A DNA stretch of 64,000 bases from Bdellovibrionales bacterium. Lineage in GTDB: Bacteria; Bdellovibrionota; Bdellovibrionia; Bdellovibrionales; JAUICD01. Where the stretch lies: NCBI GenBank assembly GCA_965203275.1, contig OZ241865.1, positions 1 to 64,000 of the forward strand, in the 5' to 3' direction. A program made the translations under genes and the position numbers. Below, piece after piece: positions 969-61,473 of the stretch (position 1 is its first letter; each line of letters begins with the position of its first letter). The notes below the pieces were generated by a model. The model had not been told where the DNA came from, made no database searches, and worked only from the letters and a program-made list of their open reading frames with translations.

Positions 969-2010
969 TTCACTCAAAATGAGCCACACCTCTGGTGTGT
1001 TTTTGGGCATTGCTCTGACAGCTTACGCTGTCCAAAAAGAGCAATGCCGCAAAAAACTGCTCATTTTGAGTAGGGAGGATCTCCTCATTTCTTTACACCA
1101 TGTTAAGGAAAAAGTTCAGTTTTAGGGCCTGTTGCCGGGTTGCCGGATCCCGGATCCCGGATCCCGGATAAAATCAAATTTAATTTTAAGTATTTTTACA
1201 CAGTTTGTATAAAAAAGCACCTAATTTGGTTCACTAAAAGTGGTCTAGCCTCTGTTTCCCTAAAATTGAACTAGCCGTTTGGTTCACTCAAAATGCATCA
1301 TGCCTCTGGCATGTTTTTGGGCAATGACCGCAATGGCTTTCGCCATTGGCAAAATGGTCATTACCTCAAAAATCTATGCATTTTGAGTAGAGGAGGATCT
1401 CTTCGTTTTTTTACTCCATGTTAAGGAAAACATCCTTCTAATGGGTAGCCCGACGGCTGTCGCCGTCGATCAAAGGCTAACTGCCTCATTTGATTTGCAC
1501 TAAAAGTAAACTAGCCTCTGGTCACTTTTGGGTTGCCAGCCGAAGGCTATCGCCTTCTTATCTTTTTCACTAAAAATAAACCAGCCTCTGGCTGTTTTTG
1601 GGCATTGCTCTGACAGCTATCGCTGTCCAAAAAGAGCAATGCCTCAAAAATCCGTTTATTTTTAGTAGGGAAGGATCTCTTCGTCCTTTAACATGATGTT
1701 AAGGAAAAATTCCTTCATCACCAATGGCAACCTAGAAAGCTTGACCACTTTTAGTAGGGAGGATCTCTTCGTTTTTTAACTCCATGTTAAGGAGTTTGTT
1801 TCACTTGAAATGAACCACACCTCTGGTGTGTTTTTTGGTGTTGCCTGCAAAGGCTTACGCCTTTGACAAAATAGGCAACACCTAAAAAATCTGTTCATTT
1901 CAAGTAGGGAAGGATCCCTTCGTTTTTTAACTCCATGTTAAGGAAAAAGTTCAGTTTTAGGGCCTGTTGCCGGGATGCTAGATCCCGGATCCCAGATAAA
2001 CATCGTGTTG
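969..2010 (+). repeat. Cluster of ~140-bp branched-hairpin elements with heptamer tails
   Basis: Full units start TTCAC at 969, 1283, 1566 and 1800 and end ATGTTAAGGAA. Nested fragments lie between them. CCGGATC arrays at ~1133-1170 and ~1968-1997. Confidence 0.95.
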
Positions 2011-2059
2011 GAAAAAAGTAGGAATATATATTCCTAATAATGCAGTTATTAAAGCAAGT

Positions 2060-2452
2060 TTATTTACAGATTTGGTGAACTTCTTCTTCTGATAAGCCAG
2101 TAATTTCACAAACTTCTTGAATGGTCATGTTTTTTTCAATAAGTTTAAGAGCCACCTCTTGCCGACCTTCTTGTCGACCCTCGGCGATACCTTCCTGCCG
2201 ACCCTCAGCGATACCTTCCTGCCGACCTTTAGCTAAACCTTCTAATAAACCTCTTTTAACCATTGGTATATATGCACCCATCTTACCTCCTTCTACTTTG
2301 ACTAATTTACTATCCTTATCTGAAGCTAATTTCAAACATCTATTGAAAAAATCCAAATCTATTTTTGGATTTCTACGATATAAATGATATTGAACTGCTG
2401 ATAATATTATATCTTGATTATTCACTCCATGCAACCCTTTAAACAATTTCAC
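2060..2452 (-). pseudogene. 5'-truncated Rpn/YhgA-like (PD-(D/E)XK 'transposase') gene retaining the C-terminal region; probable small ORF 2281-2060
   Basis: EGRQEG repeats plus terminal HTH (IQEVCEITGLSEEEV). The GTG 'start' is the repeat end. GAAGGAGGTAAG-ATG at 2281. Confidence 0.75.
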
Positions 2453-3260
2453 TAAAAGTAAACCAACCTCTGGTTGCTTTTGGGCATTGCTCTGACAGCT
2501 ATACGCTGTCTAAAAAGAGCAATGCCTCAAAAGTCCGTTTACTTTTAGTAGGCAGGATCCTTTCCTTTTTTAACAAGATGTTAAGGAAACAAGATGTTCC
2601 TTTTTTTGTTTTTTTATTCTCTTTTAGATTCTGCGTAACTTTCAAAAAAGCAGTAATTAGGGAGGAGGATAGGGCAGTGGGAGACTGAATGAGTTGGTTC
2701 ACTAAAAGTGGTCTTTTTCACTAAAAATAAACCAGCCGTCATTTTCACTAAAAGTAAACTAGCCTCTGGCTACTTTTGGGCAATGACCGCAAAGGCTTTC
2801 GCCTTTGACAAAATGGTCATTGCCTCAAAAGCCTGACCACTTTTAGTAGGAAGGATCCCTTCGTCCCTTAACTCCATGTTAAGGAAAAAGTTCTTTCTTA
2901 CACCTTTTGGCTCACGCCGTCGATCAAAGGCTGGCTACCTCAAAAGTCCGTTTACTTTTAGTAGAAAGGATCTCCTTGTCTCTTAACACGATGTTAAGGA
3001 AACAAGAAGTTCATTTCTCTGTATTTTCTAAAAGATGGAAAAAAGGTATTTAAAAATTGGAAATCCAGTGATTCTAGCTAGTTTGTTTCACTCAAAATAA
3101 ATCATGCCTCTGTTTCCCTAAAATTGAACTAGCCTCTGGTTGCTTTTGGGCGATGACTACGACGACTGTCGTCGTCGATAAAATGGTCATCGCCTCAAAA
3201 GTCCGTTTACTTTTAGTAAGGAGGATCCCTTCTTTTTTTAATACCATGTTAGGGAAACAA
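2448..3260 (+). repeat. Hairpin-element cluster
   Basis: Units at 2448, 2744 and ~3113 plus stacked left-end fragments. Confidence 0.93.
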
Positions 3261-3323
3261 GGTGTTCGTTTCTCTGGATTTCTTTGAAAAGGTAGAGAAT
3301 TTGGGTTTAAAAATTAGATTTTC

Positions 3324-3736
3324 AGTGATTTCAGCTATTTAATACTGTGACTTTTGTATAAAAGTTACAGTATTAAGTGTTTGTAATTGTTAGACTTTTT
3401 TAGGTCGACTTTAGAAATTTCTAATTTTTCGTCTAACACAATTCTTATCGTTTATTATGACATAAAACTTTATATTTTTGTTAAAAAAAATCAAAAAAAG
3501 TGACATTTTGTATCAAAAAGAATCACTTTTTTTAATTTTTGTATCATCTTGAAACACTTTACTAATCTTAAAGACATAAGATCAGAAAAATAAGTAGCGA
3601 TTTTTAATTCTTGTTTTATAACTTTTGTTTTGTTTGATTTTTCAAAACAATTTTCTTGCAAAAAACTGTCTGTTTTTTACTCTTTCAAATTGTGACTTTT
3701 ATACAAAAGTTACAGTGCTAAGTCCTTGAAATCACT
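3324..3736. promoter_or_regulatory. AT-rich segment bounded by ~46-bp imperfect inverted repeats, upstream of pilin 1
   Basis: AGTGATTTCA..ACTGTGACTTTTGTATAAAAGTTACA versus TGTGACTTTTATACAAAAGTTACAGT..TGAAATCACT; near-identical copy at 8082-8493. Confidence 0.6.
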
Positions 3737-3754
3737 AGGTCGTTTAGGATGGGT

Positions 3755-3965
3755 TCATTAAAAGTGGCCAGAAGCTGGTTTACTTTTAGTGAAAAGGAAA
3801 TCAATAGAAGGAAATCTTTTTCCTTAACATGTGGTTAAGAGAGAAGGATATCCTTCCTACTCAAAATAAATAATTTTTCTAGGCAGTTAGCCTTTCATCG
3901 ACGGCGGTAGCCGTCAGGCTAACTGCCAGAAAACATGCCAGAGGCATGATTTATTTTGAGTGAAT
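3755..3965 (-). repeat. Hairpin element (reverse) ending just before the pilin RBS
   Basis: TTCCTTAACAT...TTTTGAGTGAA, then GGAGG and ATG at 3984. Confidence 0.9.
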
Positions 3966-3983
3966 TAAACCGTGGAGGTTATT

Positions 3984-4724
3984 ATGGAACGTTTAATTAA
4001 GAATCAAAAAGGTTTTAGTTTAATTGAATTAATGGTCGTCGTGGCTATTATTGGAATTCTGGCCGCTGTGGCTATTCCAAACTATCAACAGTTTCAACGT
4101 AGAGCTATCCAAACAGAAGCAAAAGCTAAGTTAGGTGCTTTATATGTAGCTGAAACTACATTTATAAATGAGTGGGGATCCGGTACTACGAATCTTGAAT
4201 TATTAGGTTATGATCAAAAGGGAGATGCAAGTTATTATATTGTAGGATGGCATGCTAGTGATAATGTAGAAGGTGGTACAATAAAACCGAATAACTCAAC
4301 AACAGCTAGACCTACGGGTTATAGAGGTCCACTTCCAAGTGCAACCACTACAGTGAATACTCATACTTTTCAACCAGGAAGTCATAACAAGATGGCTTAT
4401 TCTGCACCTACAAATCTTCAAATAGCTGGAGCTTTGGAAAGAGTTGGAAGTTGTGGAAACAGTTCTGGTCATACTGGATGTTGTGCTGCCAATACAACAT
4501 ATCCAACTTGTAGTGATGCGAGTCCTCTTCCTTCTACTTGTACAGGCGGAAGTTGTACTTCTGCAAAGCCAGTTGCAAATACAGGCATTAGAAACGTAAG
4601 TTTCACTATAGGGGCAAGTGGAGTGATTGATGGTTCTACTGAGGTAGGAACAGCCGGAGCAAATTTAGATCGATGGACTATAACTCAAGAGAAGACTTTA
4701 GTAAACTCACAGACAGGACTTTAA
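3984..4724 (+). CDS. Type IV pilin (PilA-like) 1
   Basis: KG|FSLIELMVVVAIIGILAAVAIP prepilin motif; GGAGG RBS before ATG 3984; Cys-rich insert. Confidence 0.93.
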   Translation: MERLIKNQKGFSLIELMVVVAIIGILAAVAIPNYQQFQRRAIQTEAKAKLGALYVAETTFINEWGSGTTNLELLGYDQKGDASYYIVGWHASDNVEGGTIKPNNSTTARPTGYRGPLPSATTTVNTHTFQPGSHNKMAYSAPTNLQIAGALERVGSCGNSSGHTGCCAANTTYPTCSDASPLPSTCTGGSCTSAKPVANTGIRNVSFTIGASGVIDGSTEVGTAGANLDRWTITQEKTLVNSQTGL

Positions 4725-4754
4725 ACATAATCCTTTAATTTTAAAGTTTAAGCA

Positions 4755-4830
4755 TGATGGAGCATAAAGGCCGTTTGCTACGGCCCTTATGTTCTTTTTA
4801 ACAATAAGGGTTTAACGGCCCTTTTGTTTT
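4755..4830 (+). terminator. Two tandem rho-independent terminator-like hairpins
   Basis: GAGCATAAAGGCCG..CGGCCCTTATGTTC+T-tract and AAGGGTTTAACGGCCCTT+TTGTTTT. Confidence 0.7.
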
Positions 4831-6729: not shown

Positions 6730-7089
6730 TTTGCGAATGCAGATATCTTTTTTGAGAATATTTTATTTATAGGTATTAGAGGATTTTGATTTTTAAATTT
6801 CTTCAAAACTTGTAGTAAGACAAATTTTTGTAAATTTTTATCAATAAAGTCTTGATATAGAAAGCTATACATTATTGAGTAAAATGATGATGAAAAATGA
6901 TGTAAAACATGAGAAGCCTAAAAATAAAGGGAAGGGGAAGATGAAATTTCAGATGAATAAATTAATGATTTCCCCTAAATTAAAAAGCTTACAGTAAAAA
7001 AAGCTCACATTCTAGTGGCACAAAATCTTATTACGCTTATAACCTACTGAAATCTCACAGCTTTATTTTTTCAGGCTATCAAACTCAGG
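6712..7089. mobile_element. Non-autonomous IS1634-like remnant (clear right end, possible left end)
   Basis: 7010-7089 matches the right end of the IS at 51680-51756 (...CAGGCTATCAAACTCAGG). CTTGAATTTGACAG at 6712 is an 11/14 inverted match. Confidence 0.6.
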
Positions 7090-7543
7090 ACTTACTTTTT
7101 AGCTTTAAAATATGATCTTGAGATAAACCTGTCACCTGAGAGATTAAAGCAATATTCATATTCTCTTTTAACATATTGTGTGCAACTAATTCCATACCCT
7201 TTTCCATACCTTCTTGCCGACCCTCAGCGATACCTTCTTGTCGACCCTCAGCGATACCTTCTTGCCGACCCTCAGCGATACCCTCTTGTCGACCCTCGGC
7301 GATACCTTCTTGCCGACCTTTAGCTAAACCTTCTAATAAGCCTCTTTTAACCATTGGTATATATGCACCCATCTTACCTCCTTCTACTTTGACTAATTTA
7401 CTATCCTTATCTGAAGCTAATTTCAAACATCTATTGAAAAAATCCAAATCTATTTTTGGATTTCTACGATATAAATGATATTGAACTGCTGATAATATTA
7501 TATCTTGATTATTCACTCCATGCAACCCTTTAAACAATTTCAC
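7085..7543 (-). pseudogene. Second truncated Rpn-family gene; probable small ORF 7372-7085
   Basis: 5' part essentially identical to the 2060-2452 copy, more EGIAEGRQ repeats, different terminal HTH. Confidence 0.75.
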
Positions 7544-8015
7544 TAAAAGTAAACCAACCTCTGTTTCCCTAAAATTGAACTAGCCGTTTGGTTCACTCAA
7601 AATGCATCATGCCTCTGGCATGTTTTTGGGCAATGACCGCAATGGCTTTCGCCATTGGCAAAATGGTCATTACCTCAAAAATCTATGCATTTTGAGTAGA
7701 GGAGGATCTCTTCGTTTTTTGACCACATGTTAAGGAAAATATCCTTTTAATGGCACTTAGCCCAACGGCTTATCGCCGTTGATCAAAGGCTAACTGCCTA
7801 GAAAATCCATTTATTTTGAGTAGAGAGGATCCTTTTTTCTCTTAACACCATATTAAGGAAAAAGTTCATTTTAAACCCGCCAAGGACTCAGGAGGAAATT
7901 TTTTAGATGAAAAAATTCATTACGATCAATCTTCTAGAAACTGACTGCCGGGTTGCCGGATGCCGGATCCCGGATCCCAAATTCCGGATCCCGGATGAAA
8001 ATCATGTTAGGGGAA
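7539..8015 (+). repeat. Hairpin-element cluster with linker and heptamer tail
   Basis: Stacked left ends at 7539 and 7565, full unit at 7592, CCGGATC array at ~7947-7996. Confidence 0.93.
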
Positions 8016-8081
8016 CAAGACGTTCGTTTCTCTGGATTTCTTTGAAAAGGTAGAGAATTTAGGTTTAAAAATTAGAAATTA

Positions 8082-8493
8082 AGTGATTTCAATAAGTTAA
8101 TACTGTGACTTTTGTATAAAAGTTACAGTATTAAGTGTTTGTAATCGTTAGACTTTTTTAGGTCGACTTTAGAAATTTCTAATTTTTCGTCTAACACAAT
8201 TCTTATCGTTTATTATGACATAAAACTTTATATTTTTGTTAAAAAAAATCAAAAAAAGTGACATTTTGTATCAAAAAGAATCACTTTTTTGAATTTTTGT
8301 ATCATCTTGAAACACTTGACCAATCTTAAAAACATAAGATCAGCAAAATGAGCAATGATTTTTCATTGGTGTTTTATAACTTTTGATTTGTTTGATTTTT
8401 CAAAACAATTTTCTTGCAAAAATTTGCCTGTTTTTTACTCTTTCAAATTGTGACTTTTATACAAAAGTTACAGTGCTAAGTCATTGAAATCAC
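8082..8493. promoter_or_regulatory. Second copy of the inverted-repeat-bounded segment, upstream of pilin 2
   Basis: Near-identical to 3324-3736. Confidence 0.6.
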
Positions 8494-8511
8494 TAGGTCG
8501 TTTAGGTTTGT

Positions 8512-8712
8512 TTCACTAAAAGTGGTCTAGCCTCTGGCTACTTTCTGGTTGCCAGCCGAAGGCTATTCGCCTTCTTAAATGCTGGCAACCTAGAAAGCCT
8601 GACCACTTTTAGTAATGAGGATCCCTTCGTTTTTTAACACAATGTTAGGGAAAAAGTTTTTTTTGATGCCGGGTTGCCGGTTTACCGGATCCCGGATGGA
8701 CATCGTGTTAAG
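8512..8712 (+). repeat. Hairpin element with heptamer tail
   Basis: ACTAAAAGTGGTC...GACCACTTTTAGT unit. Confidence 0.93.
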
Positions 8713-11098: not shown

Positions 11099-11284
11099 TT
11101 CACTAAAAGTAAACTAGCCTCTGTTTCCCTAAAATTGAACTAGCCTCTAGCTACTTTTGGGCATTGCTCTGACAGCTTACGCTGTCTAAAAAGAGCAATG
11201 CCTCAAAAGTCCGTTTACTTTTAGTGAAAAACAGAGGTGTGGCTCATTTTGAGTGAAACAGAGGCCAGCTCATTTTGAGTGAAA
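11099..11284. repeat. Hairpin-element fragments with left ends facing outward on both sides
   Basis: TTCACT at 11099; reverse GAGTGAAA ends at ~11258 and ~11284. Confidence 0.9.
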
Positions 11285-15788: not shown

Positions 15789-15804
15789 TTCACTGTTTCA
15801 TTGG

Positions 15805-16335
15805 TTCACTAAAAATAAACCAGCCTCTGGCTGTTTTTGGGCAATCAGCCCGACGGCTCTCGCCGTCGATCAAAGGCTGATTGCCTCAAAAATCCGTTTA
15901 TTTTTAGTAGAGAGGATATCCTTGCCTCTTGACATCATGTTAAGGAAAAAGTTCTTTCTTACACCTTTTGGCTCTCGCCGTCGATCAAAGGCTGATTGCC
16001 TCATTTGATTTGCACTAAAAGTAAACTAGCCTCTGGCTACTTTTGGACATTGCTCTGACAGCTTACGCTGTCCAAAAAGAGCAATGTCGTTGGTTCACTA
16101 AAAGTGGTCTGACCTCTGGTCACTTTCTGGCGATGACCACGATGGCTTTCGCCATCGATAAAATGGTCATCGCCTAGAAAGCTTGACCACTTTTAGTAGA
16201 AAGGATCCTTTCCTCTTTTAACATGATGTTAAGGAAAAAGAGTTCTTTCTGATGGCGGGATCCCGGATCCCGGATCCCGGATGCCAGATCCCGGATGCCG
16301 GATCCCAGATCCCGGATCCCAGATCCCAGACCCTA
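15805..16335 (+). repeat. Hairpin-element cluster with long heptamer array
   Basis: Units at 15805, ~16010 and ~16094; array at 16255-16330. Confidence 0.93.
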
Positions 16336-23035: not shown

Positions 23036-23600
23036 TTCACTAAAAGTGGTCTGTTTCACTAAAAGTGGTCTGTTTCACTAAAAGTGGTCTAGCCTCTGGC
23101 TACTTTTGGGCAATGACCGCAAAGGCTTTCGCCTTTGACAAAATGGTCATTGCCTCAAAAGCCTGACCACTTTTAGTAGGGAGGATCCTTTCGTCTCTTG
23201 ACCACATGTTAAGGAAAAAGTCCTTTTGTTTCACTAAAAGTGGTCTGACCTCTGGTCACTTTCTGGTTGCCAGCCCGACGGCTATCGCCGTCGATCAAAG
23301 GCTAACTGCCTAGAAAATTCATTTATTTTGAGTAGGGAGGATCTCCTTGCTTCTGACACCATGTTAAGGAAATAAGATATGCTTCTAATTTTTTGAGAGC
23401 AAATGGGTTGCAATGAAGGAACTTTTTCCTTAACATCGTGTAAAGAGACGAGAGGATCCTCATTACTAAAAGTGGTCAGGCTTTCTAGGTTGCCAGCATT
23501 TAAGAAGGCGGTAGCCTTCGGCTGGCAACCAGAAAGTGACCAGAGGTCAGACCACTTTTAGTGAACCAACGGCTAGTTTACTTTTAGTGAACCAGAGTGA
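23036..23600. repeat. Hairpin-element cluster: tail-to-tail doublet with 3x19-bp stacked left ends
   Basis: TTCACTAAAAGTGGTCTG(T) repeated at 23036, 23055 and 23074; linker 23371-23425; reverse unit to 23565. Confidence 0.93.
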
Positions 23601-26404: not shown

Positions 26405-26810
26405 CTTCGATCAAAGGCTGAGTTGTTTCACTCAAAGTGAACTGACCTCTGGTCACTTTTGGACAATGACCGCAAAGGCTTTCGCCTTTGACAAAATGGT
26501 CATTGTCTCAAAAGCCTGTTCACTTTGAGTAGAGAGGATCCTTTTTTCTCTTAACACCATGTTAAGGAAAAAGAGTTCTTTCTGATCCCTGACTGCCCGG
26601 ATCCCGGGTTGTTTCACTAAAAGTGGTCTAGCCTCTGGCTACTTTCTGGCGATGACCACGATGGCTTTCGCCATCGATAAAATGGTCATCGCCTAGAAAG
26701 CCTGACCACTTTTAGTAATGAGGATCTCTTCGTCTCTTGACCACATGTTAAGGAAACAAAATGCCTTTTCTGCCTGATGCCGGGTTGCCGGATCCCAGAT
26801 CCCGGAGGGA
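26405..26810 (+). repeat. Hairpin-element cluster
   Basis: Full units at 26427 and 26613, each with a short heptamer tail. Confidence 0.93.
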
Positions 26811-26959: not shown

Positions 26960-28996
26960 ATGATGAAAAAATATTTTTTATGTTTATTTTTTGTAGTCAG
27001 TGTAATCAATGTTGGTGAGACATTTGCCTTACCTCAAGAACATTGCCCTGACGTTTTACTTACTGTTGCGGATAAAGATCATCAAAGGTTCAGAGAGCTT
27101 TCACCAGAAGCTCAAAACATGCTCCAAATAGCTTCTCTCATTGCTCAAGTGACACATAGCAATAACTCTATACCAGTAAAAGTGAATATTTATCATGTCT
27201 TACTTGCAGCTTTGACAAAAATCCAATCAGCCAATGAGGCCATCTATCGTTTAAATTTAGAGGATTTAGCTGGTGATGGTGAAAATAAAAGTGCATTATT
27301 TGTTGTTTTAAAAAACCTAGGAATTTTAAGGGATTTTCAAAGATTTCTTTTAGAAGAAATAGGTTTAAATAGTAGCAACCCAGAGCCTTTTGAATTCCAG
27401 TCAGATGGATTACTTCTCCTCAATCTGAATGAAGCTGTATTGACATCGATAAAAATTGACTATGATGAAGAATTTGATCGCTTATGGAATTTAGCTATTC
27501 GTGAGAAAGAAGAAGAGATCAGAAACATACATCGTCAAAATGGTCGGATTTTACAACTTAGTAATACAGAAAATGCAGTCAGGTACATAAAAATTAGGGA
27601 TAAGACAAAACGATATGATAAGACTTTTCGGATTCCCACTTTCCCAGAACATTTCTTTTTAGCGTCCTTACATGTTGATTTGCCTATTTTTCATTTTCTA
27701 TCAGAGTATTTTGATGGTAAGACACCGGCTCAGATTAAAGGTACACTCTATCCATTGATAGATCAAGCTAAGCGATCTTTTTGGAATTTTTCAAAAAAGA
27801 AAAAACGCAATTCTTACTCTAAAGAACAAAAAGCAGAGGGCGTTGCTCTACTGATAGAAAAAATAAATAAAGGGATAGGAATTACTCAAGCTGTTGTAGA
27901 AATAGCAGAGAAAATAGGGATTCATGCTAGCACTCTGAATAATCTGTTTTATGAATATAAAACAGAGGTCATTGATCTAGTTATTAATAGAGAGCAAGAG
28001 ATAGAATCTGAAAAAGCTATTGCAGAGGTAGCAGAGCAGAAAAATATTGATCCTGAGATTTTGCAGGATTGGATTGACAAATATAAGGAGCCATCTAAGC
28101 ACACTGAAAAAAATATTTACACTAAAAAAAGAAAAGCAGAGACTATTGATCTAATGATGGAAAAAATAAATAAAGGGATAAGAATTACTCAAGCCATTGC
28201 AGAAGTAGCAGAGCAAACAAAGATTCCTACCTCTACTTTGCATAATTGGTTTTATAAATATAAAAGAGAGTCCATTGCTCTAGTGATGAACAGAGAGCAA
28301 AAGATAGGGTCTGAAAAAGCTATTGCAGAAGTCGCAGTGCAGAAGAATATCTATCCTGAGATTTTGCAAGATTGGGTTGACAAATATAAGGAGAATAAAT
28401 CTAAACCTAAACAAAATTTTTACTTAAAAAAAAGAAAAGCAAAGGCCATTGCTCTAATGATGGAAAAAGTAAATAAAGGGATAAGAATTACTCAAGCTAG
28501 TGCAGAAATAGCAGAGCAAACAGGAATTCCTGCCATCACTCTGAGTAATTGGTTTTATGAATATAAAAGAGAGTCCATTGATCTAGTTATGAACAGAGAG
28601 CAAGAGATAGGGTCTGAAAAAGCTATTGCAGAAGTAGCAGAGGAGCAGAACATCGATCCTGAGATTTTGCAGGATTGGATTGATAAATATAAGGAGCCAT
28701 CTAAGCACACTGAAAAAAATACTTACAATAAAAAAAGAAAAACAGAGGCCATTGCTTCACTTATTAAAAGAAAGAAAGAAATAGAAGGATCGTTTCATAA
28801 AGTTATTGCAGAAGTAGCAGAGCAAACAGGAATTCCTGCTAATACTCTGTGGAATTGGCTTAAGAAATATAAAAAAGAGGTCATTGCTCTAGTGATGAAC
28901 AGAGAGCAAGAGATAGAATCTGAAAAAGCCATTTTAGAAGTAGCAGAGGAGCAGAACATCGATCCTGAGATTTTGCAGGATTGGATTGACAAATAG
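26960..28996 (+). CDS. Secreted protein with Clp-N-like N-terminus and tandem transposase-type HTH repeats
   Basis: Signal peptide; three ~100-aa repeats 'Y.K..KAE.I.L...IAEVAEQTGIP..TL.NW...I.PEILQDW'. Confidence 0.75.
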   Translation: MMKKYFLCLFFVVSVINVGETFALPQEHCPDVLLTVADKDHQRFRELSPEAQNMLQIASLIAQVTHSNNSIPVKVNIYHVLLAALTKIQSANEAIYRLNLEDLAGDGENKSALFVVLKNLGILRDFQRFLLEEIGLNSSNPEPFEFQSDGLLLLNLNEAVLTSIKIDYDEEFDRLWNLAIREKEEEIRNIHRQNGRILQLSNTENAVRYIKIRDKTKRYDKTFRIPTFPEHFFLASLHVDLPIFHFLSEYFDGKTPAQIKGTLYPLIDQAKRSFWNFSKKKKRNSYSKEQKAEGVALLIEKINKGIGITQAVVEIAEKIGIHASTLNNLFYEYKTEVIDLVINREQEIESEKAIAEVAEQKNIDPEILQDWIDKYKEPSKHTEKNIYTKKRKAETIDLMMEKINKGIRITQAIAEVAEQTKIPTSTLHNWFYKYKRESIALVMNREQKIGSEKAIAEVAVQKNIYPEILQDWVDKYKENKSKPKQNFYLKKRKAKAIALMMEKVNKGIRITQASAEIAEQTGIPAITLSNWFYEYKRESIDLVMNREQEIGSEKAIAEVAEEQNIDPEILQDWIDKYKEPSKHTEKNTYNKKRKTEAIASLIKRKKEIEGSFHKVIAEVAEQTGIPANTLWNWLKKYKKEVIALVMNREQEIESEKAILEVAEEQNIDPEILQDWIDK

Positions 28997-35839: not shown

Positions 35840-36525
35840 TGTTTATCTGGGATCTGGGATCCGGGATCAGGCAATCTGGCATCCCGGGATCCGGCATCCG
35901 GGATCCGGGATCCGGGATCCGGCATCCGGCATCCGGCATCCGGGATCAGGCAGTCAGGCAGGGATGAAGCGAATAGCTTGTTTCCTTAACATTTCACTCA
36001 AAATGCATCATGCCTTTCTTTCACTCAAAATGAGCCACACCTCTGGTGTGTTTTTTGATGTTGCCTGCAAAGGCTTTCGCCTTTGACAAAATGGTCATTG
36101 TCTCATTTGATTTGCACTAAAAGTAAACTGACCTCTGGTCACTTTCTGGCGATGACCACGACGGCTCTCGCCGTCGATAAAATGGTCATCGCCTAGAAAG
36201 CCTGTTCACTTTGAGTAAGAAGGAACCCTTCGTTTCTTAACACGATATTAAGGAAACAGAGTTTCATTTGTAGACCCGCCTGCTCCTTAAAAACATTTTA
36301 GAAGCATATCTTGTTTCCTTAACATGCTGTAAAGGAATAAAAGGATCCTCTCTACTTAAAATGAACAAGCTTTTGAGGTAGCCAGCCTTTGATCGACGGC
36401 GTGAGCCGTCGGGCTGGCTACCCAAAAGTGGCCAGAGGCCAGTTCATTTTGAGTGAAATGTTAAGGAAAAAGTTCAGTTTTAGGGCCTGTTGCCGGATGC
36501 CGGATCCCGGATAAATACCATGTTA
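35840..36525. repeat. Hairpin-element cluster with the longest heptamer array and a tail-to-tail doublet
   Basis: Array at 35845-35950; linker at 36258-36315. Confidence 0.93.
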
Positions 36526-39519: not shown

Positions 39520-40400
39520 TATCCGGGATCTGGGATCCGGGATCCGGGATCCGGGATCCGGGATCTGGGATCTAGTTCCAGAGTATTGATTGTAATGAAT
39601 TTTTTCATCTAAAAAATTTCCTCCTGAGCCCTGGCGGGTTTAAAAAGAACTTTTTCCTTAACATTTCACTCAAAATGAGCCACACCTCTGTTTCCCTAAA
39701 ATTGAACTAGCCTCTGGCTACTTTTGGACAGTTAGCCCGACGGCTCTCGCCGTCGATCAAAGGCTAACTGTCTCAAAAGCCTGTTCAATTTTAGGAAGGA
39801 GGATGTCCTCATTTCTTAACACAATGTTAAGGAAAAAGATTTCCTTCTGACATTTGCTCTGACAGCTATCGCTGTCTAAAAAGAGCAATGCCTCAAAAAT
39901 CTGCTCATTTTGAGTAGAGCGGATCTCCTTGCTTCTGACACCATGTTAAGGAAACAAGATATGCCTCTAAAATCTTTTTGGGAAGCAAGCGGGTTGCAAT
40001 AAATGAACTTTTTCCTTAACACCGTGTAAAGAGAGGAGAGGATCCTCCCTACTCAAAGTGAACAGGCTTTTGAGGCAATGACCATTTTGCCAATGGCGAA
40101 AGCCATTGCGGTCATTGCCCAAAAGTGACCAGAGGTCAGTTCACTTTGAGTGAAACAGAGGCTGGTTTACTTTTAGTGAAACAACCCGGGATCTGGCAAC
40201 CGGCATCAGGTCCTAAAACTGAACTGTTTCCTTAACATGGAGTTAAGGGACGAAGGGATCCTCCTTACTAAAAGTAAACGGACTTTTGAGGTAGCCAGCC
40301 TTTGATCGACGGCGGTAGCCGTCGGGCTGGCTACCCAAAAGTGACCAGAGGTCAGTTTACTTTTAGGGAAACAGCCCACTTTTAGTGAAACTTAGTGAAC
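39520..40400. repeat. Hairpin-element cluster
   Basis: Heptamer array 39520-39572, unit at 39692, doublet linker 39955-40012, reverse units to 40371. Confidence 0.93.
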
Positions 40401-50394: not shown

Positions 50395-51756
50395 TCTGAG
50401 TTGATAGCCTGCAAAAATAAAGTTAAGTAGATTCAGTCTTTAGATATTCTAGCAGAACATAAGGAAGATATAGAAAAAAAACTCTACAATAAAAATAAAG
50501 CTCAGATGAATCTTTTTAATCAATGTAATGTTGTTTTATATGATCTAACCACTTTAAGATTTGAGAGTACAAGAGAAGATTTAGACCACCTTCGAAGATT
50601 TGGTTATAGTAAAGAAAAAAGAAGTGATTGCACACAAGTTGTATTTGGCTTGTTAGTAGATACAGAAGGTATGCCGTTAGGATTTGATGTCTATCCTGGT
50701 AATACTTATGAAGGTAAGACAATGCCAGAAGCGATCTCAAAGTTAAAAGAGAAGTTTAACATAAGAAGATTTATATTAGTAGGAGATCGTGGATTATTTT
50801 CTAATGAAAATCTAAATTTATTTAAGGAAGAAGGTCATGAGTTTATAGTAGGATTAAAGTTAGGTTTATTAAAAGATCGTTTTAAGGAGATATATAATCT
50901 AAAGAATTTTAAATGGGTTAATGATGACTTAGCTATCTATGAGACAGAACACAAAGGTCGTCGTTGTATCATCGGTTGGTCAAGCAAGCGAGCAGAACGA
51001 GATAAAAAATTAAGAGAAGATATTTTATCTAAACTGCAAACAAAATTATCTAAAAAGACAATTAATCCCAAAGACTTTATATCTAATATGAATTACAAAA
51101 AATACATAAGTCATCCTACTTCAAAAGACAAGCCTCAATTAAATGAAGATGCAATAAAAGCATCAGAACAACAAGATGGATTTTTTGGAATTATTACAAA
51201 TGCAAAAAACTTATCCTCTAAGGAGCTTATATTAAATTATAAACATCTTTGGAAGGTAGAGAAAGCATTTAGAGATATAAAAGGTTTTCTCAAGACTCGT
51301 CCGATGTTTCATTGGACAGACAAGAGGATATTAGGTCACTTGGTATTATGTTTTATATCATATCTTTGTGAAGCTTATTTAAGCAAGAAGCTTTATGAAA
51401 AAGGTATTAAATGTAGAGAAGAATTAATGACAGGTCAGAATAAACAAGCAAGGCAACTGAGTGTTTCAGAAGCAATGTTAAAGTTAAAAGAAGTCAGAGC
51501 AGTGCCTGTCACATTAAAAGATAAGACCCTGTGGATGAGAACAGATATCACAGGTCATGCAACAGATGTATTTAAAGCAGTCAAAATACCAGCAAAACAA
51601 TTAAAAGTAGAATCATCACAATCACAATCTTAATTAATCTTAATAGATTGTTCAAAATTCTGCCACAAAAACAAAAACCTAGTGGCACAAAAGCCCTTTC
51701 GACTCATAACTTACTGACTTCGCTCAACTTTATTTTTGCAGGCTATCAAACTCAGG
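50395..51756 (+). mobile_element. IS1634-family element, 5'-truncated
   Basis: Inverted ends CTGAG(T)TTGATAGCCTGCAAAAATAAAGTT at 50396 and 51726-51756, flanking the transposase. Confidence 0.8.
50437..51633 (+). pseudogene. IS1634-family DDE transposase lacking its N-terminus
   Basis: YDLTTLRFE, FGYSKEKRSD, GDRG, WKVEKAFR, RPMFHW; frame extends upstream of 50506 with no start codon. Confidence 0.85.
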
Positions 51757-54361: not shown

Positions 54362-54363
54362 TT

Positions 54364-55090
54364 TTCACTAAAAGTAAACTGACCTCTGGTCACTTTTGGG
54401 TAGCCAGCCCGACGGCTACCGCCGTCGATCAAAGGCTGGCAACCTCAAAAGTCCGTTTACTTTTAGTAGGGGAGGATCCTCTCGTCTCTTGACCACATGT
54501 TAAGGAAAAATTTCTTTCTTATACCTGTTGCCTGCAAAGGCTTTCGCCTTTGACAAAATGGTCATTGCCTCAAAAGCCTGACCACTTTTAGTAGGAAGGA
54601 TCCTCTCGTCTCTTTACACGATGTTAGGGAAAAAGTTCCTTTTGTTTCACTAAAAGTGGTCTAGCCTCTGTTTCACTCAAAGTGAACTGGCCTCTGGTCA
54701 CTTTCTGGTGATGACCACGATGGCTTTCGCCATCGATAAAATGGTCATCACCTAGAAAGATTGACCACTTTTAGTAGGGAGGAAACCTTCGTTTTTTAAC
54801 ACGATGTTAAGGAAAAAGAGTTCTTTCTGATGCCTGACTGCCGGATCCCAGATCCCGGATTGTTTCACTAAAAGTAAACTAGCCTCTGGCTACTTTTGGG
54901 CATTGCTCTGACAGCTATCGCTGTCTAAAAAGAGCAATGCCTCAAAAGTCCGTTTACTTTTAGTAAGGAGGATCCATTCATTTTCTGACACGATGTTAAG
55001 GAAACAAGATATTCAGCCCCGGGATCAGGCAATCCGGCAAGCAGGCATCCGGGTTCCGGGACCTGATCCCGGATACTGGATAAACACCAT
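54364..55090 (+). repeat. Hairpin-element cluster
   Basis: Units at 54364, 54672 and 54864 plus fragments and tails. Confidence 0.93.
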
Positions 55091-56496: not shown

Positions 56497-56504
56497 GCGT
56501 TCAT

Positions 56505-56905
56505 TTCACTAAAAGTGGTCTAGCCTCTGTTTCCCTAAAATTGAACTAGCCTCTGGCTACTTTTGGGTAGCCAGCCCGACGACTTTCGTCGTCGATCAAA
56601 GGCTGGCTACCTCAAAAGCTTGTTCAATTTTAGGAAGAAGGATCTCCTTGTCTCTTAACACCATGTTAAGGAAACAAAATGCCTTTAAAATTATATTAAA
56701 AGAGCAATGTCTCAAAAGTCCGTTTACTTTTAGTAGGAAGAATCCTCTCGTCTCTTTACACGATGTTAAGGAAACAAATCTTTCTGATGCCTGACTGCCG
56801 GATCCCAGATCCCGGATTGGTTCACTAAAAGTAGCCAGAGGCTAGTTCAATTTTAGGGAAACAGAGGCATGGCTCATTTTGAGTGAAATGTTAAGGAAAA
56901 ATTCC
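56505..56905. repeat. Hairpin-element cluster
   Basis: Left end 8 bp after the pcnB stop; full unit at 56532. Confidence 0.93.
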
Positions 56906-57172: not shown

Positions 57173-58066
57173 ATGAGAAATATATTTATATTTTTATTTT
57201 TGTCCATGGTTGTATGTCAAAATGTTGAAGGAACACAACTTTATTTTCATCGATCTGAACCTCTAAATATCCATACGGATTTAATACATGCTAGTAAAGA
57301 TGGCGATATAGAGGCTGTAAGGAAATATCTAGAACAAGGTGCTAACGTCAATTATCAAAGTCATTATGGCTGGACGGCTTTAATGTGGGCTGGTAAACAA
57401 GGCCATATAGAGGTTGTAAGGGCATTACTAGAGGCCGGATCTAACGTCGATCTTCAAGATAGAGATGACGCGACGGCTTTAATGTATACTAGTACTAGAG
57501 GCCATATAGAGATTGTAAGGGCATTGCTAGCGGCCGGTGCGGACGTCAATATTCAAAGAAAAATTGGCAGGCACTATTTTGGCAATAGGACTTTAAATGG
57601 CGGTACGGCTTTAACTAATGCTAGTCGTGGATGCCATATTGAAGCTGTAAGGGCATTGCTAGCGGCCGGTGCTAAGGTCAATATGCCAGACCAAAAAGGC
57701 AAGACGGCTTTATGGTTTGCTAATAGGAATGGCTGTGTTGATATTGTAAGGACATTGCTAGAGGCCGGAGCTAACGGCGATATGGCTTTAATTTATGCTA
57801 GTCGTGAGGGATTTTTGCAGTCTGTAATGGCATTGCTAGCGGCCGGTGCGGACGTCGATCTTCAAACATCTAATGGCTATACGGCTTTAATGTATGCTAG
57901 TTTTGAAGACCATATTGAGATTGTAAGGGCATTACTAGAGGCCGGAGCTAACGTCGATCTTGAAGACAAACTTGGATTTAGTATCTTAGACCATGAGAGA
58001 GTACTTTCAGAAGATGTGAAAAGGCTCTTAAGAGAGTCGACGTTCCAACACCCACCATTTCTTTAA
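57173..58066 (+). CDS. Secreted ankyrin-repeat protein
   Basis: Signal peptide; about seven TALMxA..GH.E.VRALL.AGA.V repeats. Confidence 0.95.
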   Translation: MRNIFIFLFLSMVVCQNVEGTQLYFHRSEPLNIHTDLIHASKDGDIEAVRKYLEQGANVNYQSHYGWTALMWAGKQGHIEVVRALLEAGSNVDLQDRDDATALMYTSTRGHIEIVRALLAAGADVNIQRKIGRHYFGNRTLNGGTALTNASRGCHIEAVRALLAAGAKVNMPDQKGKTALWFANRNGCVDIVRTLLEAGANGDMALIYASREGFLQSVMALLAAGADVDLQTSNGYTALMYASFEDHIEIVRALLEAGANVDLEDKLGFSILDHERVLSEDVKRLLRESTFQHPPFL

Positions 58067-58785
58067 TTTCAGAAGATGTGAAAAGACTCTTAAGAGAGGC
58101 GACACAATAACTATCTATTTAATAAGAATATACGGGCCGTAGCAATCGGCCTTTATGCTCTTTTCAAGCCGGTCTTTTTATAATTCACAAGGAAGTTTAT
58201 CATCCTATTTATCTGAAAAAAGGCTATAGAACTTAAATATATAAGTAGAATTTATCAAAATTGGCAGTTTGGTGATGCTATCACGCCCCCTGGCAGGCCC
58301 TAACTATAACCCGTGCTTATAAACTACTTTAGAACATCCTGACAATTATAATTGAAGTTTATATTCGTAGGCTTGTCTTCAATCTTTGACTCAATCTTGT
58401 TTAGCTTGCAATTTGTCAGACTCCAAAACATTAAAGGAATAAAAAAACATTTACAAACTTTCCAAACGTTCACTTTCTTTAAGAAATTCTTAGTATTTTT
58501 AAAATTCAAACTTAATCTCGATTTATTTTCTTTACTAAAACTCAAACTCACATTCAAATTCAGCTTCAAAGTTAATTTATCTTTTCTATCTAAAATCAAA
58601 ATATTCTTTACTCCTCATTAAGTAATCATTGTTAAAATGTATATTTCCCTCCGTAGGAGGTTATTTAACTCAAATTTATACACTTGTCAACAAAAAAATG
58701 AATTTTTCAAATAAAAAAAAGGACCACAAGTGGTCCCTTCCTAGTATCATGGAAAACTTCAATTTTCATATCCACTTAAGATTGC

Positions 58786-59112
58786 TTATCTTCTCGTAAG
58801 GACGTCAATAATCTTTTCTATATTCCCTTTTATTTCATTAATCTCATTCTTTAATTCATTAATATCTGCCTTGAGTTCCGTCCTTACGTTTTCAATCTTT
58901 GTAGGTATATGGTTGTTTACTTGCTTTTTAATGTCTTCCATGTCTTTTTTTGTAGAAATAGCTTGTTCCTTAACAAAATCCACTTCTGCTTTGATAGGTT
59001 TATTTAGAACATTATTTATCATAATTAAACTACCTACAACACTAAAAACGCCAATTATAAAGATACCTATAAGAATACCTATTATTGGTAGGGTTTCATA
59101 TACTAATTCCAT
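58786..59112 (-). CDS. N-terminal TM plus coiled-coil hypothetical protein
   Basis: AAGGA RBS, hydrophobic helix, heptad ELKADINELKNEINEIK. Confidence 0.75.
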   Translation of the reverse strand: MELVYETLPIIGILIGIFIIGVFSVVGSLIMINNVLNKPIKAEVDFVKEQAISTKKDMEDIKKQVNNHIPTKIENVRTELKADINELKNEINEIKGNIEKIIDVLTRR

Positions 59113-59624
59113 TATTTTTATCCTTTTTTAGTTTTTAGTTTTATTATTCATGCACCAATGTTCTTATTTGTCTTGCAAGTGGTGAGTTTAGGCATGGACT
59201 AGAATATCTATTGGTATATTTAATAAAGAAGTTGAGATTTCCAAATTCTGAGGATGTGTTGATTTAATATGCTCGACACTAGTCTGATTTATAAGACTGA
59301 AACGTCATGGAACAATTAAAGGGAAAAAATAAGTTATAAGCGTTCTCTCTAACTTATCAAACATTGATTGTTTAGTGCCATCGAATGTGACTTATCGAAT
59401 GTGACTTTAGGATAAGGCCATAGAATAAATGTCTCATTAGATAGAAAAAATACTAAAATAAACCTTATTTTCTTTTTCATACACTCACCATATATATATT
59501 CTTTTAAAAAATCAATAAAAGCTTTAACCCCCTGCATAAACTTATATTTATCTTATCATGTAGAACAAAGTATGTCAAACCATCTTGAAAATGAGGTCTT
59601 GATGAGCTTTAGCATTAAAAAAAC

Positions 59625-59910
59625 TAGCCGTTTGGTTCACTCAAAATGAGCCACACCGCTGGTGTGTTTTTTGATGTTGCCTGCAAAGGCTTTCGCCTTT
59701 GACAAAATAGGCAACATCTAAAAAATCCGCTCATTTTGAGTAGAGGAGGATATCCTCATCTCTTAACTACATGTTAAGGAAAAATTTCAGTTTTAGGGCC
59801 TGATGCCAGGTTACCGGATGCCTGATCCCGGATCCCGGATGAAAATCATGTTAAGGAAATAAGCTGTTTATCACGATGGCTACTGCCGTCGATCAAAAGC
59901 TGGCTATCTC
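59625..59910 (+). repeat. Hairpin element with tail
   Basis: Full unit at 59636. Confidence 0.93.
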
Positions 59911-59928
59911 TACCCCTTGTCAGAAAAC

Positions 59929-60579
59929 TTAAAGTAATTTCTTTAAAATTTTTAAAGATTCTACAGCACACAATCTTGGTCTATTACGACGGATGTACTC
60001 GTTATGAGTTAATCTTACTTGTGTATTACCTCTATATTCATATTTCATCATATTGTTTTCATACCGGCTTATTTTATTCTTTATAAATTCCTCCAGGGTC
60101 TTGTTGACATACCTATATTGAGTCTCATAATAATTATGATTGTCTTCTATTAAAGGTACTTGCCCTGCAAATGTATAATTATAATGATCTGCATTATAGT
60201 AATTTAATGGACCATCTAAATTAACCCCTTGCTTGACCATATCTCTTAACAAGAGAGCTGCAATATCATACTGTCTGAGTTCAATTGCTATAACCACTAA
60301 ATTTTTTGTATTAGAGTTTACTGTAGCTCCATCTCGTAATGCAGTTTGTACACCTTGAACACTTTTATTCATAAGTGCTATAAGTAATTTTTGTTCAGGA
60401 GTTAGTAACCTAGCATCATAAAATAAAGGCAAAGGAGCAACATTAGAAGAGTCTGTAAATTCTTCGCATGAAAGACTTGCAAATCTTTCTGATACTATAT
60501 CACCTAAGTATGCTCGCGATTGGGTTATAAATCCTAAACTCATAACACCCGCTATAACTAAATTGAGTAAAAATTTCAT
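59929..60579 (-). CDS. Secreted protein with degenerate ankyrin-like repeats
   Basis: GGAGG before ATG 60579; signal peptide; VQTALRDGATVN...IAIELRQYDIAALLL. Confidence 0.65.
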   Translation of the reverse strand: MKFLLNLVIAGVMSLGFITQSRAYLGDIVSERFASLSCEEFTDSSNVAPLPLFYDARLLTPEQKLLIALMNKSVQGVQTALRDGATVNSNTKNLVVIAIELRQYDIAALLLRDMVKQGVNLDGPLNYYNADHYNYTFAGQVPLIEDNHNYYETQYRYVNKTLEEFIKNKISRYENNMMKYEYRGNTQVRLTHNEYIRRNRPRLCAVESLKILKKLL

Positions 60580-60664
60580 AAAACACCTCCATTTTAATTG
60601 ATTAAACATTCTTATTATAATTAACTGACCATTAAAAAACTCTTAAAACACTTCCCTCTAAATA

Positions 60665-61473
60665 TCCGGAATCCGGCACCCCGCACCCCAGCATCCGAAG
60701 GAAATCTTGTTTCCTTAACATCATGTAAAGAGACAAGAGGATCCTTCTTACTCAAAGTAAACGGACTTTTGAGACGATGACCATTTTGTCAAAGGCGAAA
60801 GCCTTTGCGGTCATCGTCCAAAAGTGACCAGAGGCCAGTTCACTTTGAGTGAACCAGTGGCATTGCTCTTTTAATATAATCTTAAAGGCATTTTGTTCCC
60901 TTAACATCCTGTTAAGAAATGAAGGGATTCTCTCTACTAAAAGTGGTCAAGCTTTCTAGGTTGCCAGCATTTGAGAAGGCGAATAGCCTTCGGCTGGCAA
61001 CCAGAAAGTGACCAGAGGTCAGACCACTTTTAGTGAGCCAACAGCGTAAGCTGTCAGAGCAATGTCCAAAAGCAACCAGAGGTTGGTTTACTTTTAGTGC
61101 AAATCAAATGAGGCAATCAGCCTTTGATCGACGGCGTGAGCCGTCGGGCTAACTGCCATTAGAAGGACATTTTCCTTAACATGTAGTCAAAAAACGAAGA
61201 TATCCTCCCTACTCAAAATGCATAGATTTTTGAGGCAATGACCATTTTGCCAATGGCGAAAGCCATTGCGGTCATCGTCCAAAAGTGACCAGAGGCCAGT
61301 TCACTTTGAGTGAGCTAAAACATCTTGTTTCCTTAACATCATGTTAAGAAATGAGGACATCCTCCTTCCTAAAATTGAACAAGCTTTTGAGGCAATCAGC
61401 CTTTGATCGACGGCGATAGCCGTCGGGCTGATTGCCCAAAAGTAGCCAGAGGCTAGTTCAATTTTAGGGAAAC
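60665..61473 (-). repeat. Hairpin-element cluster (reverse)
   Basis: Four near-full reverse units and fragments. Confidence 0.93.

Follow-up and report, generated by a model that had tools for sequence, protein, structure and literature searches.

The spread of high-copy palindromic repeats in bacteria is understood only in part, and the cases studied adjoin RAYT genes. In the extracts drawn on here, REPINs and BIMEs are described as intergenic and high-copy, with mosaic clusters, tandem arrays that include flanks, and compensatory changes (PMC3116915, PMC8266576). For the Rickettsia palindromic elements (RPEs), the extracted sections name no mover (PMC10969869, PMC3733652). IS91, in the portion of its description used here, has two unlike ends and produces no target duplication; its CTTG/GTTC target lies beside oriIS, and terIS is read through in 1–14% (PMC13181058). 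Mini-hairpins of the GCGNNAGC type are placed at primase-dependent phage origins by the extract available, which reports that they bind SSB poorly (PMC13037366).

We analysed a stretch of 64,000 nucleotides (the window) from the small genome of an uncultured Bdellovibrio-like bacterium (G000, 90% complete) and confirmed that it contains a real element family. The ~145-base unit (about 144, rather than the ~140 bp of the preliminary description) runs from TTTCAC to ATGTTAAGGAAA and folds into three-armed hairpin DNA. In the window, a covariance model recognised 34 full copies scoring at least 112 bits, 25 on the plus strand and 9 on the minus, besides fragments, and a three-block pattern gave 29 matches against 0 in 100 shuffles. 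Searching the whole genome with nhmmer returned 1402 matches, 773 of them near-full, and none in the reversed genome; the family amounts to about 6% of the genome's DNA. Both ends were parsed in 736 copies genome-wide (648 distinct), which lie on both strands. The copies in the window, beginning with the prototype and its parts, are as follows.

968–1111, plus: prototype full element, head TTTCAC to terminus ATGTTAAGGAAA (covariance model, 143 bits)
968–973, plus: head, the sharp end; C-[A/C]-C-T invariant
972–984, plus: P1 left arm, partner 1059–1071
985–999, plus: P2 hairpin, with CCTCTG as the principal site of self-insertion
1000–1055, plus: P3 (6 bp, bulge, 10 bp) around P4 and an A-rich one-sided loop
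1021–1028, minus: GCGNNAGC DNA mini-hairpin motif at the P4 tip (type as in the PMC13037366 extract)
1059–1071, plus: P1 right arm, ending in the GT of GTAG
1072–1111, plus: weak P5, and P6 with invariant terminal arm ATGTTAAGG
1112–1227, plus: carried tail, truncated by the next head; a heptamer tract and the end (last about 42 bases, minus strand) of a four-helix-bundle (TIGR02436) gene
1228–1948, plus: mosaic cluster; three full copies (at 1282, 1565 and 1799), stacked fragments of heads, and 3' remnants
2447–3257, plus: three full copies (at 2447, 2743 and 3113), remnants and fragments of heads
3760–3965, minus: full copy 3819–3965 and one head fragment
within 7560–8010, plus: full copy 7591–7738, remnant to 7863
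within 7560–8010, plus: captured four-helix-bundle leader, heptamer tract and second half-terminus
8511–8653, plus: full copy (covariance model)
11124–11258, plus: copy with P1–P4 retained and terminus degenerate
15804–16237, plus: two full copies, two fragments
23073–23566, both strands: two plus copies and one minus, between gspG and tpiA
26426–26756, plus: two full copies (covariance model)
36020–36458, both strands: fragment, plus copy 36112–36256, minus copy 36314–36458
39665–39956, plus: clear nested insertion; a host head fragment ends in CCTCTG, followed by an inserted copy with other alleles (39691–39835), a 20-base tail, and a host remnant whose P1 arm matches the host head fragment
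40011–40371, minus: two copies just past the gyrA stop codon
44329–45246, plus: three full copies and remnants
54363–55004, plus: three full copies and one remnant
56530–56860, both strands: full plus copy, remnant, minus head fragment
59635–59782, plus: full copy (covariance model)
60710–61472, minus: four copies with fragments

Single copies folded as DNA with z-scores of −8.8 to −10.5 (5/5 folds). In an alignment of 39 sequences, 96.3% of cells were paired, compared with 82.5% in shuffles and 35–51% with slid partners, and both sides had changed in 34 of 51 pairs, figures that ignore kinship. P1–P4 covary strictly, which bears out that part of the covariation claimed previously; P5 is weak and barely covaries (90% paired, 2/4 pairs compensated), and P6 has 0/6 pairs compensated, its right arm being invariant and its left arm tolerating wobble. 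All eight P1 alleles reported earlier are present, each with its exact reverse complement 85–90 bases downstream; the positions given for them are element starts, and the alleles themselves begin 3 bases later. Exact complementarity holds for most copies and is not universal (P1 is perfect in 512 of 636 parsed copies). The preliminary description held that the fold is kept rather than the sequence. The fold is indeed kept, but the sequence is conserved as well, with about 50 near-invariant positions.

The fold looks like DNA rather than RNA, because G-T equals A-C in the stems (210 and 205 cells, with 15511 Watson-Crick) and because the GCGNNAGC mini-hairpin occurs on the minus strand of 591 of the 736 copies (on the plus strand in 7). 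Its loops carry a pyrimidine at position 3 in 198/591 cases, and GNRA loops form the majority (393/591). Among congeneric copies, RCGNNAGY was found in only 16 of 50, with 30 unparsed. The strand signals are at odds, P4 loops favouring minus and P6 wobbles plus. At the right foot of P1, before P5, the tetramer is GTAG in 534, GTAA in 122 and GGAA in 56 of 712 copies. The unit is asymmetric and branched, with its 3' terminus unpaired and P1 not terminal at the 3' side. The base-pair and loop counts, together with the lack of orientation bias between genes (below), speak against the structured RNA offered as one option earlier. Copies with an intact outer stem (P1) spread more often, in agreement with the proposed selection on the fold: 76 of 297 perfect-P1 haplotypes lay at several distant loci, versus 3 of 77 with at least two P1 mismatches (Fisher p = 6.5e-6), a comparison confounded by new chimeras being unique by origin.

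Polarity, self-nesting and carried tails, all absent from the preliminary description, are the most telling on mechanism. The element has two functionally unlike ends, a sharp fixed head and a leaky tail. Where flanks were not themselves element, fewer than 20 bases were common with any other copy on the head side in 161/271 cases and on the tail side in 21/244; at least 30 were common in 208/244 tail flanks, so that tails comprise tens to hundreds of bases common to other copies. YTG directly precedes the head in 443/736 copies (genome background 3.6%), the commonest 4-mers at this place being TTTG, TCTG and GTTG, not CTTG; it does so in 81/197 at unique flanks and in 29/44 in the congeneric genome. 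Copy junctions had no fixed-length target duplication and, on inspection, no shared CT or CA dinucleotide. Head junctions contain 0–7 non-target bases before the head, and on the tail side target bases are lost or duplicated, with deletions or long duplications opposite the head at 37/304 unique-flank copies versus 49/2708 random sites. CCTCTG of P2 directly precedes 103/736 heads, and in such nested cases the P1 alleles of the left head and right remnant matched in 25/66 (7.4 expected; 2000 permutations gave at most 19).

Of 151 genomes, 3 gave the element, which is restricted to one genus; matches in the third genome lie at least partly on a contaminant contig. Just 7 of the 773 near-full copies fall in long ORFs. 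In tandem gene gaps orientation is unbiased (196 vs 219), 194 copies lie between divergent gene pairs, and in 35 of 90 sense cases the head is within 20 bases of the upstream stop codon. Of 33 loci, two gave syntenic gene pairs; at both, the element is present in the congeneric genome and missing from G000, and such site differences point to mobility between species. Four public runs showed no empty allele. The first proposal, of a mobile element whose three-way-junction fold is conserved, is supported.

One gene recurs beside it. The terminus faces the stop of 10 of 11 intact four-helix-bundle (TIGR02436, Avd-like) genes, compared with 78/1794 other genes. This gene is under purifying selection (39/57 variants at third codon positions), and in its truncated versions a head interrupts it at one of a few fixed sites. 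Of 201 genomes in the order, 71 contain the gene family, with 10–19 copies in several others (G021, G113, G148, G159). In the surroundings of the 10 such genes examined from G113 and G148, the element model found nothing above 29 bits, and in the congeneric genome the element adjoins 3 of 7 loci examined, in mixed orientation. The gene is best read as target and passenger.

The window holds no cognate enzyme, as stated previously, and the genome scan suggested at that time found none among the families searched. The Y1_Tnp profile gave 0 in G000 (control matched in 6/14 genomes), RVT_1 gave 0 candidates (control 3/14), and a Bdellovibrionales RAYT query gave 0 at E 1, with no positive control. 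Y2_Tnp and NF033538 profiles also gave 0 in the genome, and their controls matched nowhere either; Rep_trans gave 0, and a motif scan of 1863 ORFs revealed no credible HUH protein. No IS110, TnpB or TnpA gene was found in the genome, its sole PF07282 match lying inside a 1365-aa frame. No autonomous element with the same ends was among the matches listed from genome, metagenome, virus, plasmid and phage scans. Plasmid and phage BLAST with the element gave no match, nor did Rfam, in line with the earlier failure to recognise a family. Two tyrosine recombinases (307 and 187 aa) are, by eye, XerD-like and small. In G001, the Y1 gene is IS200 with no element nearby, and the reverse transcriptases (group II and retron types) have no G000 match better than E 0.1; G002, a genome of the same family, has RAYT-like genes. 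An attC/integron identity was rejected, since neither IntI nor a same-strand cassette array was found and copies lie on both strands. IS110 bridge RNA and IS200/IS605 omega RNA were rejected likewise, the genes they require not being found in the genome.

We put the chances about evenly on a mobile DNA element that is polar and non-autonomous: it would be recognised in its folded, single-stranded form and copied one way only, working much as one-ended IS91 transposition does. The nick at the head would be made by a single-strand nickase supplied in trans, of the HUH/tyrosine kind and behaving in an IS91-like manner, and the nicked head would be joined to the target 3' end after YTG. Synthesis would pass through the element, often beyond the P6 terminus, and micro- or full homology close to the nick would serve to resolve the far end, producing small deletions or, less often, long duplications. 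Mosaic alleles may arise from crossing-over with resident copies during resolution. The enzyme may have been lost, lie on an unassembled replicon, or belong to a family undetected by the profiles used.

A possible though doubtful reading is one-ended mobile DNA that has no genes and can do without any known transposase. Its branched fold and primase-type mini-hairpin would recruit the mover, an unrecognised nickase or host priming/repair enzymes, perhaps with the Avd-like protein as chaperone, and copying from the fixed head would carry downstream DNA, whole genes included. We consider it unlikely that there is no dedicated transposase and that the folded strand hijacks host replication enzymes through template switching at lagging-strand gaps, perhaps with the Avd-like protein assisting. 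The SSB-resistant mini-hairpin and CTG by the head would then act as a primase start signal; E. coli primase starts at CTG, which lies ahead of 23/44 congeneric heads. The frequency of the mini-hairpin, the messy junctions, as in repair synthesis, the orientation towards a gene under purifying selection, and the failure to find a known mobiliser among the families searched all fit. However, the gene family is far more widespread than the element, the G113/G148 genes examined have no element nearby above 29 bits, and in the congeneric genome only 3 of 7 loci adjoin one, in mixed orientation. A SINE-like retro-element is quite improbable. Here, the 3' end GUGAAA-CAR of a minus-strand RNA would prime reverse transcription at a nicked target, and the tails would be transcript from upstream, varying in length. 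Target-primed reverse transcription fits the pairing of a precise end with a variable one, the short head linkers and the far-end deletions and duplications; GNRA loops and an Avd-like neighbour are in keeping with a retro-element. Nevertheless, the reverse transcriptase results above argue against it, as do stems without G-U excess, gene truncation at fixed sites rather than random 5' truncation, and mutations (per thousand: C>T 8.1, G>A 9.8, T>C 2.9, A>G 3.9) that are neither adenine-specific nor strand-biased.

We give just as little credence to a REP/REPIN-type element of a lost RAYT, with GTAG at the P5 foot as REP guide. Intergenic location, hundreds of copies, mosaic clusters, tandem arrays with flanks, compensatory changes, the prevalence of GTAG and the RAYT-like genes of G002 recommend it, but no RAYT was found in G000 or G001, GTAG is replaced in 178/712 copies beside a P5 that barely covaries, the unit is not a symmetric doublet, and the junctions lack the shared dinucleotide. 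Very unlikely is a host-selected regulatory RNA (terminator, RNase III or stability element) spread by gene conversion: heads near stop codons and rarity inside ORFs suit it, whereas unbiased orientation, copies between divergent genes, sites differing among congeneric genomes, nesting copies that destroy each other, and the Rfam result do not. A classical MITE of the resident IS256, IS1634 or Rpn genes, all multi-copy in G000, has scarcely any probability and is largely refuted: IS256 and IS1634 ends are unlike those of the element, P1 is not terminal 3', no fixed target duplication exists, and Rpn has 16 matches in G003, a genome without the element.

More than 700 nested full copies form a record of many insertions in one genome, legible without culture, from which junctions, targets and the value of stems can be read. 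A new mover would mean either a novel enzyme acting on single-stranded DNA or a route driven by the host, by which flanking genes are amplified too. If an HUH enzyme is lost or hidden, this would still be an unusually elaborate, structure-selected mini rolling-circle element.

Among described systems, the primase-dependent origins of phage G4 and ssiA, in the extract used, likewise have a mini-hairpin in a multi-hairpin single strand (PMC13037366); those are single-copy, whereas this is a dispersed mobile repeat whose priming role is hypothetical. RPEs, compared by description only and from partial accounts, resemble it in length (about 150 bases), palindromic nature and host-associated bacteria, but often lie in frame inside genes (PMC10969869, PMC3733652). 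REP/BIME/REPIN sequences, as far as the extracts describe them, share high-copy intergenic palindromes, mosaic clusters, compensatory changes, a strand folded as DNA and a hairpin-foot GTAG, here in most copies (PMC3116915, PMC8266576, PMC6006769, PMC3733652). Unlike them, the element is a 144-base three-way junction, asymmetric and polar, with variable GTAG and no RAYT in either genome. REP hairpins carry GT[AG]G at the 5' foot; GTAG here stands at the 3' foot of P1 and ahead of the weak P5. With IS91/IS801/IS1294, in the portion described, it shares unlike ends, subterminal hairpins, no fixed target duplication, a leaky far end bringing neighbouring DNA along, and possibly a fixed-end target of pyrimidine-T-G type, CTTG there and YTG here (PMC13181058). 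IS91 inserts cleanly, in contrast to the extra bases and target loss or duplication seen here, and the IS91 family differs also in that for this element no Y2 transposase (the Y2 profile controls matching nowhere) or parent element was found, and in that this element has a branched covarying fold and hundreds of copies. The present element, its mover not found, is best taken as a variant of the known non-autonomous single-strand elements.

The element family is real and abundant. Its covariance model recovered 34 full copies scoring at least 112 bits in the window, together with many fragments, and a three-block pattern gave 29 matches there against none in 100 shuffles. In the whole genome of the same source (2.57 Mb, 90% complete), 1402 profile matches covered ~161 kb (6%), and 773 of these were near-full. 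The matches were divided evenly between the strands, and the reversed genome yielded none. Both ends could be parsed in 736 copies, 648 of which were distinct. An Rfam search of the window returned no match, in keeping with the preliminary description, which had recognised no known family; a tRNA scan of the window with ARAGORN also found nothing. The genes of the window include those for type II secretion, pilins, glycolysis and gyrA.

Each unit extends for ~144 bases from the head, TTTCAC, to the terminus, ATGTTAAGGAAA, and the invariant part of the head is limited to C-[A/C]-C-T. The 13-bp P1 is the closing stem of a three-way junction whose other arms are P2 and P3, the latter bearing P4. 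Eight P1 alleles had been listed as self-complementary, and the exact complement of each was indeed located 85-90 bases downstream. We aligned 39 copies, comprising 24 from the window and 15 from loci of a congeneric genome and of G004, a third genome with matches. Paired cells reached 96.3%, compared with 82.5% in shuffles, which leave relatedness in, and 35-51% with slid partners. Both sides had changed in 34 of 51 stem pairs, a statistic in which kinship between copies remains. The proposed three-way-junction fold with complementary stem alleles thus held for P1-P4, but the 3' part differed: P5 was paired at 90%, and the right arm of P6 was invariant, with a left partner alternating between C and T.

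Stems were exchanged as modules, with 92 combinations among the common P1, P3 and P4 alleles; despite this exchange, 512 of 636 copies had a perfect P1, where 88 would be expected. We also examined spread in relation to P1 alone, counting core haplotypes present at several distant loci. Such haplotypes made up 76 of 297 with a perfect P1, 6 of 43 with one mismatch and 3 of 77 with at least two (p 6.5e-6, perfect versus at least two). This association between an intact P1 and spread is suggestive of selection on the fold, although it falls short of proof because new chimeras are unique by origin.

The possibility of a structured RNA, also raised in the preliminary description, was not supported. 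Across 26 stem pairs in 622 distinct copies, there were 15511 Watson-Crick, 210 G-T and 205 A-C cells; as G-T and A-C were about equally frequent, neither strand profits from wobble pairs. On the minus strand, the P4 tip of 591 out of 736 copies read GCGNNAGC, whereas 7 copies had this motif on the plus strand. Among the 591 tips, 198 carried a pyrimidine in the third position of the loop, a feature disfavoured in GNRA RNA loops. The sections of PMC13037366 dealing with GCGNNAGC describe it as a defined DNA mini-hairpin of exceptional stability that is far weaker in RNA form, binds SSB poorly and occurs at primase-dependent phage origins. Copies in tandem gene gaps showed no orientation bias (196 vs 219), and 7 of 773 lay inside long ORFs. 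Counter to a DNA reading, congeneric copies were parsed as RCGNNAGY in just 16 of 50 cases (30 were unparsed), and P6 wobbles favoured the plus strand. Nevertheless, the fold looks like one of DNA rather than RNA.

The two ends of the element behaved differently. YTG stood before the sharp head in 443 of 736 copies (3.6% in the background), including 81 of the 197 with unique flanks; for the congeneric copies the figure was 29 of 44. When flanks derived from the element were set aside, fewer than 20 bases were common with any other copy in 161 of 271 head-side flanks versus 21 of 244 tail-side flanks, and 208 of these 244 had at least 30 bases in common with another copy. Tails consisted of remnants of the element itself, of other repeats and heptamer tracts, and of fragments of a four-helix-bundle gene; they often ended in a second half-terminus. 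In a ribosomal operon, 56 bases of the rpsQ end were duplicated together with the element. The shared flanks, the tail content and this duplication indicate that the tail side travels with the element. An orientation bias near stop codons (98 vs 22) was given no weight, because copies lying tail-first are displaced from genes by the tails that they carry.

Copies were also nested. In 103 of 736 copies the head came straight after CCTCTG in the P2 of another copy, and the host sequence usually picked up 10-25 positions later, after a tail of 14-25 bases, as in the following example:

Window 39665-39956: nested insertion

The P1 alleles of left fragment and right remnant agreed in 25 of 66 cases, where 7.4 were expected and the highest count among 2000 permutations was 19; part of these are single nesting events, and the others are later recombination or carried remnants. 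At targets other than CCTCTG, 0-7 non-target bases stood before the head, mostly ending in TG. A general or fixed target-site duplication was rejected, as long duplications occurred in 37 of 304 unique-flank copies, many in tandem arrays, versus 49 of 2708 random sites. Contigs from four public runs over a 19.9-kb stretch of the source genome outside the window broke at repeats and provided no clean empty site, and carry no weight either way.

When 151 genomes of the order were scanned with the covariance model, 3 contained the element. G004, among these, is probably a mixed bin, so the family is known from one genus. Two rplN sets are present in G004. On the element-bearing contig C11, rplN was 98% identical to that of the congeneric genome and 79% identical to G004's own on C14. 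Judged from this comparison, which was made for C11, that contig is a contaminant from the window's genus, and C1 and C4 probably are too. The 12 element matches of G004 were confined to C1, C4 and C11, whereas its four-helix-bundle genes lay on C6 and C12-C15, which undid an apparent co-occurrence of the two in three genomes. Divergent copies on C1, C4 and C11 kept P1-P4 but had other loops and no clear terminus. C11 also carried a second ribosomal operon 98% like the congeneric one, further partial rplN copies and, twice, a divergent terminus-less element behind a duplicated piece reading like a tRNA 3' half. Synteny with the source genome was seen at 2 of 33 congeneric loci, and the source genome lacked the element at both (median protein identity 66%). 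Viral, plasmid and phage collections contained no copies, nor did metagenome collections apart from one chance match (L131); in a genome-collection scan, all of the matches listed came from one Bdellovibrionales record.

The four-helix-bundle gene (TIGR02436, Avd-like) is tightly linked to the element in the source genome. The terminus faced the stop codon in 10 of its 11 intact copies there, compared with 78 of 1794 other genes. The most fitting reading of the gene is as a favoured target and passenger of the element: 71 of 201 genomes of the order have members of its family, often many of them but no element; the tie is loose in the congeneric genome, where the element adjoined 3 of 7 loci of the gene; heads interrupt the truncated copies at fixed sites; and no adenine-specific change was seen, on which ground DGR-type mutagenesis was also rejected. 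The 11 intact or near-intact copies were under purifying selection, and several other genomes of the order had 10-19 copies with other short tandem repeats. The cassette looks like a mobile unit of its own, for which no enzyme was found. Its representatives are:

Source genome, e.g. 2111804-2112109: four-helix-bundle cassette, multi-copy, with hairpin leader and heptamer tracts
Window 1186-1227, 7870-7960 and 39553-39640: four-helix-bundle remnants

The element is interleaved with at least four further families of dispersed intergenic repeats (window 2600-2700, 8030-8500 and 39960-40000). Their units are a long AT-rich one of 236 bases, a fold-back whose arms are CCGAAGTCCTC and GCGGAAGATC, a GTACGTAC-core unit and a purine-rich unit. 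Further features of the window are:

Window 26960-28996: 678-aa protein carrying many HTH-like repeats in tandem and a signal-like N-terminus
Window 50506-51633: truncated IS1634-type transposase (6 genome copies, 2 full length)
Window 2060-2452 and 7085-7543: Rpn/YhgA-like gene fragments

The N-terminus of the 678-aa protein is common to a 12-copy family, and residues 1-330 gave no usable match in the ESM Atlas. Nine IS256-type copies with short target duplications lie outside the window. The Rpn/YhgA-like family has ~46 members in the source genome, several broken by the element. Other paralog families there comprise ~160 ankyrin-linked ORFs, 79 small ORFs with transmembrane and coiled-coil segments and 34 pilin-like ORFs; such large families are typical of host-associated bacteria. 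GC skew along the contig was nearly flat.

The preliminary description had seen no cognate enzyme in the window; we found none there, and the searched families provided none in the source genome either. Y1_Tnp, IS110, RVT_1 and Rep_trans had no matches in that genome, nor did a RAYT protein query. Y2_Tnp and the IS91 transposase likewise had no matches, but these blanks are weak, as the controls also matched nowhere. Decayed remnants of Y1 or reverse transcriptase genes are ruled out within the reach of the Y1_Tnp, RVT_1 and RAYT searches and of a comparison with the congeneric reverse transcriptases. SbcD_C was not found in the source genome, a member of the same family (G002), an order member without the element (G003) or G004. 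GIY-YIG matched once per genome, in a ~600-650-aa frame that we read as a putative UvrC. TnpB was discarded as the mover, its sole family match in the source genome being a 1365-aa frame, and an integron reading was dropped because neither of the two tyrosine recombinases, judged by eye, resembles IntI. The congeneric Y1 gene is plain IS200, and the congeneric reverse transcriptases are of group II and retron types; all are unrelated to the element. IS256 and IS1634 differ from it in their ends, and the distribution of Rpn does not match. G002 has two RAYT-like Y1 genes (L013 and L014) with short flanking palindromes of their own, unrelated to the element. The 1.6-Mb genomes G003 and G004 had no Phage_integrase match, so no XerC/D was found.

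Fold, polarity, target preference, nesting, carried tails and between-species turnover are all observed in the copies; the steps of movement would be as follows. The element would be recognised as a folded single strand and nicked at the head, which would be joined to the target after YTG. Synthesis would often continue past the terminus, and the far end may be resolved by homology guidance. We give such HUH-like one-ended copying roughly an even chance. E. coli primase starts at CTG; copying of the element by host priming enzymes appears unlikely. Retro-copying is less probable still, and a RAYT that moved the element and has since been lost seems similarly doubtful.

We found no published description of the family, although a closer relative could be listed among REP or IS ends in the supplementary material of the papers cited. 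The element works like IS91 one-ended transposition as treated in the relevant parts of PMC13181058, but its insertions are not clean and no parent element was found, so we do not file it as IS91. It also has habits in common with REPINs and BIMEs, as far as these are covered in the corresponding parts of PMC3116915, PMC8266576, PMC6006769 and PMC3733652, but lacks both a RAYT and the symmetric doublet. Non-autonomous single-strand elements are already known as a kind, and the present one is a new lineage-specific variant.
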